In this document: positions 1,809 to 62,146 of the stretch, in pieces
Layout: every line of letters begins with the position of its first letter
Position numbering within the stretch: position 1 is the first letter of the stretch
DNA from: Escherichia coli
Lineage (GTDB): Bacteria; Pseudomonadota; Gammaproteobacteria; Enterobacterales; Enterobacteriaceae
Direction: 5' to 3' (one strand)
Assembly: GCF_003018115.1 (NCBI RefSeq)
Contig: NZ_CP027457.1
DNA length: 64,000 nt
Notes under the pieces: model-generated
Seen by the model: the letters and a program-made list of their open reading frames with translations, nothing else
Told to the model about the DNA's origin: nothing
Databases searched by the model: none
Program-made: the position numbers and the translations under genes

Positions 1809-1914
1809 AACTCGATTGTCGCTCAATCTCACCATCCTGCCAATACTCTTAGGCAAGATGACTCTTTTTTTTGGACCGCCATCAGGCGTATGCTTGCTTC
1901 GTTTTTTTGTTTAA

Positions 1915-2409
<495 letters not shown>

Positions 2410-2413
2410 GCAT

Positions 2414-2438
2414 TGTGCCGGATGCAAACATCCGGCAC
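2414..2438. terminator. Hairpin between convergent ybaK and ushA (possible bidirectional terminator)
   Basis: Inverted repeat gtgccggatg-caaaca-tccggcac directly after the ybaK stop and before the ushA stop; the U-tract is weak. Confidence 0.45.
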
Positions 2439-2445
2439 TTTCGGA

Positions 2446-4098
2446 TTACTGCCAGCTCACCTCACCTTTCGGTTCATAAACACTCACATCCAGCGGCGAG
2501 CTTTTCTGGATATACGCTTTCAGCACTTCGGCATCAATAAAGCCGGTATTCACATAGCCCGGTTTGTTATCAAGGCGCGGATATCCATCACCGCCGGTGG
2601 CATTGAAGTTTAATGTCGCCATACGGTAAGTTTTCGCCGGATCGACCGGTTCGCCTTTGATTTTAAGGTCGTTCAGTTTGCCGTCTTTCGCCACAAAGCT
2701 AACGTTGGCAAATTGCGGGTAGGCACCTGAATCTGGCTTCATCTGCGCGACGGCGGTCAGGTAATCAATCACCTCTTTACCGGTCATGTCGGCATACACC
2801 ACCACATTGCCGAATGGCTGCACTTTCAGCACGTTTTTATAGCTGATATCGCCTGCTTCGATAGAATCACGAATTCCGCCTCCGCTCATCACCGCAAAGT
2901 CGGCACCAGTGCGATCCATTTGGGCTGCCAGAATCAACCGCCCCATATTGGTCTGTACAAAACGCACTTTGTCACGATCGCCTTCCAGACGACCATTGGT
3001 TTCGCCTATTTTCACTTCCAGCTGCGCTTTGCCTTTGTTCTGGAACGGTGATAACAGCGAGATCATTTGCTGGTTTTCAGCGATTTCAGGAGTGTAAAGC
3101 ACGCGCTCGCTTTTCCCGTCTTCCCAGGTCACTTTCTTCTTCAGGTTCACCGGAATCAGCTGGTAGTTAACCATTTTCATTTCGCCATTACGAAACTCAA
3201 AATCAGCCCGTCCCACGTATTTGCCCCACTCATGCGCCTGCACAATCCAGATGCCGTTTTGTTGATCTGGTTTGCATGGCGTACCCGGCACGTAATCGAC
3301 CTGTTTTTTGTTTTCTGCCGCCATGCAGACCGGATCTTGCGAGTGACCACCGACGATCATCGCCAGCGATCCGGCAGGCAGCGCGCGTGCCATCTCCACA
3401 TCGCCCGGTGCGTTAGAGCCGTGCTCACCATTATTGTAATGCCCCATATGGGTCGCCGCGATAATAATGTCTGGCTTTTCTGTCTGTTGCAGCTCCTGAA
3501 TCACCAGCTTCGCTTCATCGGCGGGCTTACGAAATTCGATATCAGTGAAGTATTCCGGGTTACCAATTTTTGCTGTGTCATCGGTTGTCAGCCCAATAAC
3601 GGCAATTTTCAGATCCTGACGCTTAAACAGCGCCCACGGTTTAAACAGGCGCTCGCCAGTACTTTTCTGGTAGATATTCGCGGAAAGCAACGGGAACTTG
3701 GCCCACTTTTCCTGCTGGCGTAATACGGTGAGCGGATTATCAAATTCATGATTACCGATCGCCATCGCGTCATAGCCCACCAGATTCATACCGCGAAAAT
3801 CAGGTTCGGCATCCTGTAAGTCAGACTCGGGCACGCCAGTGTTAATGTCGCCACCGGAAAGTAGCAGCACGCTACCGCCTTCAGCCGCAACCTCTTTGCG
3901 GATACCATCCACCAGCGTTTTTTGCGCCGCCAGACCATATTCGCCATATTCATTGCGCCAAAAATGCCCATGATGATCATTGGTATGCAGAACTGTAATT
4001 TTGTAGGTTTTATCCTGCTCATACGCCAGAGCAGTTTCACTCGCCAGTGTAAATGTGGTTAACAGCGCTAACGCCACGCCCCGCTGCAATAATTTCAT
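2446..4098 (-). CDS. ushA: Periplasmic UDP-sugar hydrolase / 5'-nucleotidase UshA (550 aa)
   Basis: ORF 2446..4098 (-), 550 aa; signal peptide and metallophosphatase motifs (HTNDHHGH, GNHEFD); recognised as UshA. Confidence 0.96.
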   Translation of the reverse strand: MKLLQRGVALALLTTFTLASETALAYEQDKTYKITVLHTNDHHGHFWRNEYGEYGLAAQKTLVDGIRKEVAAEGGSVLLLSGGDINTGVPESDLQDAEPDFRGMNLVGYDAMAIGNHEFDNPLTVLRQQEKWAKFPLLSANIYQKSTGERLFKPWALFKRQDLKIAVIGLTTDDTAKIGNPEYFTDIEFRKPADEAKLVIQELQQTEKPDIIIAATHMGHYNNGEHGSNAPGDVEMARALPAGSLAMIVGGHSQDPVCMAAENKKQVDYVPGTPCKPDQQNGIWIVQAHEWGKYVGRADFEFRNGEMKMVNYQLIPVNLKKKVTWEDGKSERVLYTPEIAENQQMISLLSPFQNKGKAQLEVKIGETNGRLEGDRDKVRFVQTNMGRLILAAQMDRTGADFAVMSGGGIRDSIEAGDISYKNVLKVQPFGNVVVYADMTGKEVIDYLTAVAQMKPDSGAYPQFANVSFVAKDGKLNDLKIKGEPVDPAKTYRMATLNFNATGGDGYPRLDNKPGYVNTGFIDAEVLKAYIQKSSPLDVSVYEPKGEVSWQ

Positions 4099-13868: not shown

Positions 13869-13897
13869 CGAGAGCAGGTGATCCTGCTCTCGTTTGC

Positions 13898-22499: not shown

Positions 22500-23147
22500 T
22501 TATTCGTTAGTGGCAGGATTACGAAGCGTGGGGCACAGGAGATACATCTCCAGTAAGATGGCAACGTAATCGCGGGCTTCTTTTTTAAGATCAAAAGATT
22601 GCGGGGCAAAGAGCCAGTTTTCCATCAGGCCGGAAATATAGCCGCGCATAATAATTGCTGCGCGACGCGTCATTAAATCCGCAGGCAACATTTTCGCTTC
22701 AATACAATGTTTTAACGTTTGTTCTATACGGTCATAACTTTCCAGACAGAGATTACGTTGTGCCTGTTGCACAACAGCCATTTCTCCGACAAATTCGCAT
22801 TTGTGGAATATAATCTCCATCAATAATCGACGCCGTTCTTCTGTCACCGTGGATTCAAGAACATGAATTAATATCTCTCTTAATACTGAGAGTGGATCGC
22901 CAGGGAATTTTGCCTGATACTCAAGCTCTAGTTCACCAATATTGGATTCTGACAGTTCCCAGATCTCACTGAACAAATCCGACTTGTCTTTAAAATGCCA
23001 GTAGATTGCACCGCGCGTAACGCCAGCTGCTTTTGCAATCTCGCCCAGCGAGGTGGATGATACCCCCTGCTGTGAGAAAAGACGTAGAGCCACATCGAGG
23101 ATGTGTTGGCGCGTTTCTTGCGCTTCTTGTTTGGTTTTTCGTGCCAT
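22500..23147 (-). CDS. acrR: TetR-family repressor AcrR (215 aa)
   Basis: ORF 22500..23147 (-); recognised N-terminus [52 protein letters not shown]; divergent from acrAB. Confidence 0.96.
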
Positions 23148-23175
23148 ATGTTCGTGAATTTACAGGCGTTAGATT

Positions 23176-23199
23176 TACATACATTTGTGAATGTATGTA
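23176..23199. promoter_or_regulatory. AcrR operator: perfect 24-bp palindrome in the acrR-acrA divergent promoter region
   Basis: tacatacatttgtgaatgtatgta is a perfect inverted repeat (tacatacatt / aatgtatgta) located between acrR and acrA. Confidence 0.75.
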
Positions 23200-23288
23200 C
23201 CATAGCACGACGATAATATAAACGCAGCAATGGGTTTATTAACTTTTGACCATTGACCAATTTGAAATCGGACACTCGAGGTTTACAT

Positions 23289-24482
23289 ATGAACAAAAAC
23301 AGAGGGTTTACGCCTCTGGCGGTCGTTCTGATGCTCTCAGGCAGCTTAGCCCTAACAGGATGTGACGACAAACAGGCCCAACAAGGTGGCCAGCAGATGC
23401 CCGCCGTTGGCGTAGTAACAGTCAAAACTGAACCTCTGCAGATCACAACCGAGCTTCCGGGTCGCACCAGTGCCTACCGGATCGCAGAAGTTCGTCCTCA
23501 AGTTAGCGGGATTATCCTGAAGCGTAATTTCAAAGAAGGTAGCGACATCGAAGCAGGTGTCTCTCTCTATCAGATTGATCCTGCGACCTATCAGGCGACA
23601 TACGACAGTGCGAAAGGTGATCTGGCGAAAGCCCAGGCTGCAGCCAATATCGCGCAATTGACGGTGAATCGTTATCAGAAACTGCTCGGTACTCAGTACA
23701 TCAGTAAGCAAGAGTACGATCAGGCTCTGGCTGATGCGCAACAGGCGAATGCTGCGGTAACTGCGGCGAAAGCTGCCGTTGAAACTGCGCGGATCAATCT
23801 GGCTTACACCAAAGTCACCTCTCCGATTAGCGGTCGCATTGGTAAGTCGAACGTGACGGAAGGCGCATTGGTACAGAACGGTCAGGCGACTGCGCTGGCA
23901 ACCGTGCAGCAACTTGATCCGATCTACGTTGATGTGACCCAGTCCAGCAACGACTTCCTGCGCCTGAAACAGGAACTGGCGAATGGCACGCTGAAACAAG
24001 AGAACGGCAAAGCCAAAGTGTCGCTGATCACCAGTGACGGCATTAAGTTCCCGCAGGACGGTACGCTGGAATTCTCTGACGTTACCGTTGATCAGACCAC
24101 TGGGTCTATCACCCTACGCGCTATCTTCCCGAACCCGGATCACACTCTGCTGCCGGGTATGTTCGTGCGCGCACGTCTGGAAGAAGGGCTTAATCCAAAC
24201 GCTATTTTAGTCCCGCAACAGGGCGTAACCCGTACGCCGCGTGGCGATGCCACCGTACTGGTAGTTGGCGCGGATGACAAAGTGGAAACCCGTCCGATCG
24301 TTGCAAGCCAGGCTATTGGCGATAAGTGGCTGGTGACAGAAGGTCTGAAAGCAGGCGATCGCGTAGTAATAAGTGGGCTGCAGAAAGTGCGTCCTGGTGT
24401 CCAGGTAAAAGCACAAGAAGTTACCGCTGATAATAACCAGCAAGCCGCAAGCGGTGCTCAGCCTGAACAGTCCAAGTCTTAA
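23289..24482 (+). CDS. acrA: Multidrug efflux periplasmic adaptor lipoprotein AcrA (397 aa)
   Basis: ORF 23253..24482 trimmed to MNKNRGFTPLAVVLMLSGSLALTGC (lipobox); ATG at 23289. Confidence 0.97.
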   Translation: MNKNRGFTPLAVVLMLSGSLALTGCDDKQAQQGGQQMPAVGVVTVKTEPLQITTELPGRTSAYRIAEVRPQVSGIILKRNFKEGSDIEAGVSLYQIDPATYQATYDSAKGDLAKAQAAANIAQLTVNRYQKLLGTQYISKQEYDQALADAQQANAAVTAAKAAVETARINLAYTKVTSPISGRIGKSNVTEGALVQNGQATALATVQQLDPIYVDVTQSSNDFLRLKQELANGTLKQENGKAKVSLITSDGIKFPQDGTLEFSDVTVDQTTGSITLRAIFPNPDHTLLPGMFVRARLEEGLNPNAILVPQQGVTRTPRGDATVLVVGADDKVETRPIVASQAIGDKWLVTEGLKAGDRVVISGLQKVRPGVQVKAQEVTADNNQQAASGAQPEQSKS

Positions 24483-32535: not shown

Positions 32536-32925
32536 ATGCTGGTTTCTTGCGCAATGCGACTTCACTCGGGCGTTTTTCCAGATTATGCTGAAAAATTACC
32601 TCAGGAAGAAAAGATGGAAAAAGAAGATTCATTTCCCCAACGCGTCTGGCAAATCGTCGCCGCTATTCCCGAAGGCTATGTCACCACTTACGGTGATGTG
32701 GCGAAACTGGCGGGATCGCCCCGCGCCGCGCGCCAGGTGGGCGGTGTGTTAAAGCGTCTCCCTGAAGGCAGCACCTTACCCTGGCACCGGGTGGTTAATC
32801 GCCACGGCACAATTTCGCTAACCGGACCGGATTTACAGCGTCAGCGACAGGCATTACTGGCAGAAGGTGTGATGGTATCGGGAAGCGGGCAAATCGACTT
32901 GCAGCGTTATCGCTGGAACTACTAA
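32536..32925 (+). CDS. atl: Alkyltransferase-like protein Atl (YbaZ), 129 aa; O6-alkylguanine-binding, non-catalytic
   Basis: ORF 32515..32925 trimmed to ATG 32536 (MLVSCAMRLHSG...); the MGMT-fold motif reads PWHRVV, with Trp in place of the catalytic Cys of PCHRV. Confidence 0.9.
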   Translation: MLVSCAMRLHSGVFPDYAEKLPQEEKMEKEDSFPQRVWQIVAAIPEGYVTTYGDVAKLAGSPRAARQVGGVLKRLPEGSTLPWHRVVNRHGTISLTGPDLQRQRQALLAEGVMVSGSGQIDLQRYRWNY

Positions 32926-32955
32926 CCCTCTCCGGGCGGAGAGGGTTAACGTCGC

Positions 32956-62104: not shown

Positions 62105-62123
62105 CAAAACCTCTCTATTAAAA

Positions 62124-62146
62124 AGGTGCTACGGCACCTTTTTTCT
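62124..62146 (+). terminator. Rho-independent terminator of the cyo operon
   Basis: Hairpin aggtgc-tacg-gcacct followed by tttttt, 20 nt after the cyoE stop. Confidence 0.85.

Follow-up and report, generated by a model that had tools for sequence, protein, structure and literature searches.

The 64,000 nucleotides of DNA analysed here, referred to below as the window, carry the Escherichia coli acrR/acrAB locus, an assignment that follows from curated protein models and from 100% DNA identity to annotated genomes (Table 1). The regulator gene acrR and the first pump gene acrA are divergent and are separated by an intergenic gap of 141 bp (23148-23288), and an ORF of 1120 aa located upstream in the window is assigned to MscK by the NCBIfam models.

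Table 1. Genes and regulatory features of the acrR-acrAB region, in window coordinates
Feature	Position	Strand	Basis
acrR, TetR-family repressor, 215 aa, intact	22500..23147	-	ORF; NCBIfam AcrR equivalog
Marbox (MarA/SoxS/Rob activator site)	23127..23147		PMC11642870; boundaries approximate
acrAB promoter -35 hexamer TTTACA	23174..23179	+	Promoter scan; hexamer mutated in "acrA down", PMC12825309 Table S2
AcrR operator TACATACATT-TGTG-AATGTATGTA (24-mer TACATACATTTGTGAATGTATGTA)	23176..23199		Exact sequence; published 24-mer
Left half-site (arm) TACATACATT, 10 nt	23176..23185		Unchanged in 79/79 loci, Escherichia to Pantoea, Erwinia and Serratia
4-nt centre TGTG, non-palindromic, species-variable	23186..23189		Cross-genus comparison
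Right half-site (arm) AATGTATGTA, 10 nt	23190..23199		97.7% mean conservation
acrR transcription start, within operator right arm	23192	-	Same reading of marks as for the acrAB start, PMC12825309 Table S2
acrAB promoter -10 hexamer TACCAT	23198..23203	+	Promoter scan; PMC12825309 Table S2; invariant across genera
acrR promoter -10 hexamer TATGGT	23199..23204	-	PMC12825309 text and Table S2
acrAB transcription start (A)	23210	+	Reading of unexplained asterisk marks, PMC12825309 Table S2
acrR promoter -35 hexamer CTGCGT (weak)	23222..23227	-	PMC12825309 Table S2; made TTGACA in "acrR up"
acrA, pump periplasmic adaptor, 397 aa	23289..24482	+	NCBIfam AcrA equivalog, 885 bits vs cut-off 765
acrB, RND permease, 1049 aa	24505..27654	+	NCBIfam AcrB equivalog, 2422 bits vs cut-off 2150

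Against the NCBIfam AcrR equivalog, whose cut-off is 271, the regulator encoded in the window reaches 419 bits, and its sequence is the same as that of RefSeq WP_000101737.1 from another E. coli genome. These two results bear out the initial annotation, which had described acrR as a full 215-aa ORF free of frameshifts; the protein is the full-length common allele. Its entire length aligns with the E. coli AcrR structures 2QOP and 3BCG, and these, together with 3LHQ, are the only PDB entries for AcrR itself, all of them solved TetR-fold structures. Among the NCBIfam models, those for AcrR, EnvR and MtrR match along the whole protein, EnvR being second best at 179 bits, and those for TetR, BetI, FabR, SlmA and others match its N-terminal part. 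The cognate regulator is thus present and intact, with an N-terminal helix-turn-helix domain of the TetR type and a C-terminal ligand-binding domain.

The intergenic gap contains an inverted repeat that the initial annotation had placed between the divergent acrR and acrAB genes, and the repeat finder recovered it at exactly the same coordinates. Its two 10-nt arms are 100% complementary and are separated by 4 nt, and the sequence agrees with its reverse complement at 20 of 24 positions. The earlier description of a perfect 24-bp palindrome holds for the arms and fails at the centre, where TGTG is not self-complementary and breaks the symmetry; the element is properly written as 10+4+10, and a 10-4-10 interrupted inverted repeat is also how the AcrR site is described in the relevant passages of PMC10597343. 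The pattern TACATACATT-N4-AATGTATGTA occurs exactly in the window, and the entire sequence equals the published 24-mer base for base, in agreement with the earlier statement that this copy is intact. The repeat has a GC content of 25% and is not followed by a T-tract.

The position of the repeat relative to the promoters can be defined precisely, as the -35, -10 and start positions of PMC12825309 Table S2 map exactly on the window. The two start sites are interpreted from marks that the table leaves unexplained, and the interpretation was checked by the spacing of the hexamers; the transcription start sites of that study were derived from cappable-seq. Mapping the Table S2 elements by script gives spacers of 18 nt in the acrAB direction and 17 nt in the acrR direction, and a consensus promoter scan independently found the TTTACA-18-TACCAT arrangement. 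Relative to PacrA, the repeat extends from -34 to -11 and includes four of the six bases of the -35 hexamer (in the left arm), the whole spacer, and the first two bases of the -10 hexamer (in the right arm). Relative to PacrR, it extends from -7 to +17 and includes the last base of the -10 hexamer, the start site and the early transcribed region. The two -10 hexamers have five positions in common, within a segment (23198-23204) that reads TACCATA on the plus strand and TATGGTA on the minus strand, that is, TAnnnTA on both, and the divergent starts are 18 bp apart, an arrangement that qualifies as a bidirectional promoter in the sense of Warman et al. The site therefore lies between divergent acrR and acrAB as a dyad-symmetric element overlapping a -35 hexamer, a spacer and a -10 hexamer. 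Another candidate for the acrR promoter, TTAATA...TATATT/TATTAT (minus-strand scan matches ending at 23213-23215), was dropped in favor of the experimentally manipulated CTGCGT/TATGGT.

Other elements accompany the promoters. The marbox lies within the initial ~21 nt of acrR coding sequence, with its centre at about -73 from the acrA start, consistent with the report of a site for MarA/SoxS/Rob within the first ~20 nt of that gene (PMC11642870). A strongly conserved block at 23221-23237, AACGCAGCAATGGGTTT, holds the acrR -35 hexamer on the minus strand and corresponds to about +12 to +28 of the acrAB leader; it is overlapped by an imperfect inverted repeat (23218-23226 / 23231-23239). The likewise strongly conserved acrAB 5' leader CCATTGACCAATTTGAAATCGGACACTCGAGGTTTAC (block 23250-23288) includes TCGGA, a motif reported as a CsrA site in Salmonella (PMC5727465).

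The repeat is well characterised in the literature as a site for AcrR. Where PMC9769551 and PMC10597343 deal with the acrAB promoter, citing Su et al. 2007, they name the exact 24-mer as its known AcrR-binding site, and a review gives the same 24-mer, attributed to Li et al. 2007, as its example of a TetR-family binding site. In EMSA, purified AcrR shifts acrAB promoter DNA and not gapA promoter DNA (PMC9769551), and in vitro it represses both the acrA and the acrR RNAs (Warman et al., NAR 2026, PMC12825309); the substrates of both experiments were whole promoter fragments and not operator point mutants. Deletion of acrR raises the fluorescence of an acrAB reporter, PacrA/acrR is described as a bidirectional promoter with overlapping -10 hexamers, and SoxS, and more weakly MarA, activates the acrA direction (PMC12825309). 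Together with footprinting, the published 24-mer, the EMSA and the in vitro repression uphold the initial identification of the palindrome as the AcrR operator. The repeat at 23176-23199 is thus almost certainly the operator of the TetR-family repressor AcrR, through which both acrAB and acrR are repressed. Su et al. are also said, in the passages of later papers that refer to their 2007 work, to have observed AcrR binding to a 24-28-bp duplex with only the repeat. The finding is already known: the element is the same as the characterised AcrR operator, wild type and ordinary.

The geometry described above suggests how repression would operate. The helix-turn-helix domains of AcrR would recognise both 10-bp arms, possibly as two dimers per 24-bp site on opposite faces of the DNA, a stoichiometry suggested where PMC10597343 discusses the complex. 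The site takes up the entire interval separating the two hexamers of the acrAB promoter, and it also covers the edge of the acrR -10 hexamer, the acrR start and the first 17 transcribed bases. One occupied site would then keep RNA polymerase off both promoters, presumably by steric occlusion, and exclusion of the polymerase in both orientations would account for the repression of both transcripts. A ligand on the C-terminal domain of AcrR would cause release from the DNA, in line with the ligand-induced release summarised in PMC8277102, and MarA, SoxS or Rob at the marbox, ~73 bp upstream of the acrA start, would activate the acrAB direction.

Chance does not account for the operator repeat. 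When any centre is allowed and up to three mismatches are tolerated, its pattern is present once in the 64-kb window, and none of 100 dinucleotide-preserving shuffles contained any match at this threshold. No further AcrR site with three mismatches or fewer was found in the window; once the site itself, which matches in either orientation, is set aside, the best remaining local matches differ at 9-10 positions and represent self-overlaps or chance-level similarity. Matches to the 24-mer on both strands number 41 per 64 kb at up to 10 mismatches and 182 at up to 11. Several "predicted AcrR sites" in the literature (puuA, mdtUJI, flhDC, soxRS, marRAB) differ from the 24-mer at 9-12 positions, and because matches with 10-11 mismatches are so frequent, such predictions are, as sequence matches, at background frequency and depend wholly on EMSA support.

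Two weaker resemblances to the operator occur close to it. At 23143-23166, 33 bp away and over the acrR start codon and the marbox, is a degenerate version of the operator core that agrees with it at 14 of 24 positions; the repeat D2, 23145-23162 versus 23178-23195, corresponds to this resemblance. The second is AGGTTTACATA, at the ribosome-binding site and start codon of acrA (23279-23289), which repeats AGATTTACATA (23171-23181), that is, the acrA -35 hexamer and the beginning of the operator left arm. This second copy is kept within the Enterobacteriaceae and could be due to chance or be a weak extra half-site.

These copies raise the question of whether the operator is aided by weak auxiliary half-sites (23143-23166, and TTTACATA at 23279-23289), with AcrR oligomerising or looping and competing with MarA/SoxS/Rob. 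If true, this could account for the several shifted bands obtained in EMSA and for the mild effect of deleting acrR. It is nevertheless very unlikely, as both candidates are chance-level matches and are less conserved than the main site; the copy at 23143-23166 has 10 mismatches in 24, and its cross-genus conservation falls below that of the operator.

Conservation of the operator was determined by a scan with AcrR, taking one genome per species, which gave 80 loci, 79 of them usable, with AcrR identities from 98% down to 60%. The loci range from Escherichia, Salmonella, Citrobacter, Klebsiella and Enterobacter to Serratia, Erwinia, Pantoea and Rouxiella. All 79 usable loci have their best operator match 27-29 nt from the acrR start codon with no more than three changes, and the changes fall almost entirely in the centre. 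Over the 79 distinct sequences, mean conservation reaches 100% in the left arm and 97.7% in the right arm, compared with 83.5% in the 4-nt centre and 76-89% in the rest of the intergenic region, making the arms the most conserved block of that region by phylogenetic footprinting. Invariance extends from TTTACA across the repeat as far as TACCATAGCA, and the marbox block, TTTGGTTTTTCGTGCCAT, is invariant in seven genera. The centre appears across genera as TGTG, TATG, CGCG, TGCG, CATG or TTTG. Some of these variants complete the symmetry: the palindrome is perfect over its 24 bp in Serratia ureilytica, S. bockelmannii and S. marcescens (loci L069-L071), which have CGCG between intact arms, and in Rouxiella (L077), which has CATG. 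The other Serratia loci and Chimaeribacter (L065, L067, L068, L072, L073) share the CGCG centre, but their right arm begins with T in place of A.

Because the arms overlap the -35 and -10 hexamers of acrA and the start of acrR, which are themselves constrained, their conservation is partly confounded. It could even be argued that the repeat is maintained only as part of the bidirectional-promoter elements, its dyad symmetry being incidental and AcrR acting elsewhere in the region. The arms do overlap TTTACA, TACCAT/TATGGT and the acrR start, the conserved block does reach past the repeat (TTTACA...TACCATAGCA), and the whole region is 76-89% conserved. However, positions 23180-23197 form the PacrA spacer, where RNA polymerase needs a given length and not a given sequence, and 14 of the 18 spacer bases lie in the arms and are at or near invariance in the 79 loci, with only the four central bases varying. 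An invariant spacer sequence in a promoter points to a constraint beyond RNA polymerase, and the combination of an invariant spacer with variation only at the dyad centre is, as judged from the alignment, the signature of a symmetric protein-binding site. Furthermore, the symmetry is complete in the Serratia and Rouxiella loci just mentioned, TtgR and PmeR, which are homologous repressors, bind symmetric sites of nearly the same sequence, and in their treatment of this promoter PMC9769551 and PMC10597343 regard the 24-mer as the AcrR site on the grounds of direct binding assays. A promoter-only origin of the conservation is thus most improbable, and the AcrR operator remains the preferred reading.

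The operator is one of five perfect 10-4-10 repeats in the window, where ~0.06 of any sequence would be expected per 64 kb (64000 x 4^-10), and it is the only AT-rich one. The other four (2415-2438, 13869-13892, 32924-32947 and 62120-62143) are hairpins of 42-67% GC, each either GC-rich itself or with a T-rich stretch after it, and are probably terminators or REP-like hairpins. This resemblance of the companion repeats to RNA hairpins, and the expected folding of an RNA copy into a 10-bp stem closed by a 4-nt loop, could suggest that the operator repeat works in the leader of acrR or acrAB at the RNA level, for instance as a terminator, an attenuator or an element governing stability. Such a role is scarcely credible: acrAB transcription begins at 23210, downstream of the repeat, and acrR transcription begins at 23192, inside the right arm, so neither mRNA contains both arms. 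Nor does the repeat, with its low GC content and missing T-tract, have the makeup of an intrinsic terminator; it was not called in a terminator scan of the window, and Rfam gave no match to it at E<=1.

Almost no credence can be given to the idea that the site mainly serves another or additional TetR-family repressor, such as EnvR/AcrS, the acrEF regulator, with AcrR playing a minor part: this acrEF-adjacent regulator also binds upstream of acrAB and regulates it (PMC6790063), the score of the EnvR model on AcrR implies related DNA-binding domains, and some MICs hardly change when acrR is deleted (PMC12825309 Table 1), but such binding would supplement that of AcrR and not replace it, AcrR binding and repression have been directly shown (PMC9769551, PMC12825309), and every locus examined has the operator together with acrR, the distance between them being fixed.

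Among characterised systems, the AcrR operator of E. coli K-12 acrAB does not differ from the one in the window in sequence (base for base), position, repressor allele or promoter elements. The closest relatives outside AcrR are TtgR of Pseudomonas putida (ttgABC) and PmeR of P. syringae (mexAB-oprM), TtgR being the closest non-AcrR homolog of AcrR in the PDB (E about 1e-43). Their operators are 10-4-10 repeats as well and, with sequences taken from PMC4538802, share 18 of their 24 positions with the AcrR operator, among them seven of the ten in the left arm and nine of the ten in the right arm. The left arm is TACAAACAAC in the two Pseudomonas systems and TACATACATT in AcrR, the centres of the former are CATG or CGCG, and the same TTT directly precedes all of these operators. 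TtgR, PmeR and AcrR each repress an RND efflux operon, whereas the genus and the inducing ligands differ. The recognition element is therefore common to this TetR-like subfamily of efflux repressors.

TetR, the archetype of the family, resembles AcrR in the N-terminal domain alone (28 bits). The tetO operator of Tn10 is a 15-bp palindrome that binds one dimer, and it is present as two tandem operators. The TetR/tetO system resembles that of AcrR in having a helix-turn-helix repressor divergent from the efflux gene that it controls and a palindromic operator over divergent promoters, with repression in both directions relieved when a ligand releases the repressor (family description in PMC6790063, PMC8277102). 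The AcrR site, in contrast, is single and longer, with 24 bp and, where PMC10597343 discusses its occupancy, two suggested dimers.

MtrR of Neisseria gonorrhoeae is a further homolog of AcrR (E about 1e-32), and its gene is likewise divergent from an RND pump operon, mtrCDE, with overlapping divergent promoters. Cis mutations in the 13-bp inverted repeat between mtrR and mtrCDE raise expression of the pump (PMC8277102), and the clinically prevalent one, a 1-bp deletion in that repeat, is common in Neisseria. E. coli differs in that its operator is nearly invariant and resistance arises mostly through lesions in the acrR coding sequence (PMC11702832, PMC8277102).

This near-invariance was apparent in the complete E. 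coli genomes. A 241-bp segment (23100-23340) is at least 99% identical in 5,421 of 5,426 genomes, where it is annotated as acrR/acrA, and identity of at least 99% over the 44-bp core (23166-23209) is seen in 5,363 of 5,423; of the 60 genomes with a variant core, 20 have the centre changed from TGTG to TATG. The acrR-acrA region is wholly absent from 3 of the 5,426 genomes, and 2 of the 5,423 matching records are annotated as plasmid and not as chromosome. The degree of identity suggests that operator changes are rare in nature.

The initial annotation had also considered point changes at this site clinically relevant to efflux up-regulation. For the operator itself this is thinly documented. 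The well-documented clinical route to AcrAB overexpression is a loss-of-function mutation of, or an IS insertion into, the acrR coding sequence (PMC8277102, PMC11702832). As for the operator, intergenic variants overlapping the AcrR site reached frequencies of up to 99% under drug pressure in morbidostat evolution (PMC11702832), and a SNP in the putative AcrR site was found in one clinical isolate of K. pneumoniae (bioRxiv 10.1101/138248).

One natural rearrangement was observed next to the operator. In an E. coli isolate from chicken (L081, NZ_CP148461.1), an IS481-family element of ~1.1 kb occupies positions 1900-3005, corresponding to about 23170-23174 in the window, with an apparent TAGAT target duplication directly upstream of the acrAB -35 hexamer. 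The operator and promoter remain intact, the marbox and acrR are displaced by ~1.1 kb, and the annotated transposase CDS crosses the operator.

The operator is the local brake on AcrAB-TolC, the principal intrinsic multidrug efflux pump of E. coli. Because regulator, operator, promoters and marbox are all wild type in the window, no up-regulation of efflux via this locus is predicted. The arrangement is one in which a single operator, placed asymmetrically on a bidirectional promoter, would block transcription in both directions. In the Enterobacterales, the invariance of its arms and the drift of its 4-bp centre give a clean definition of the recognition element.
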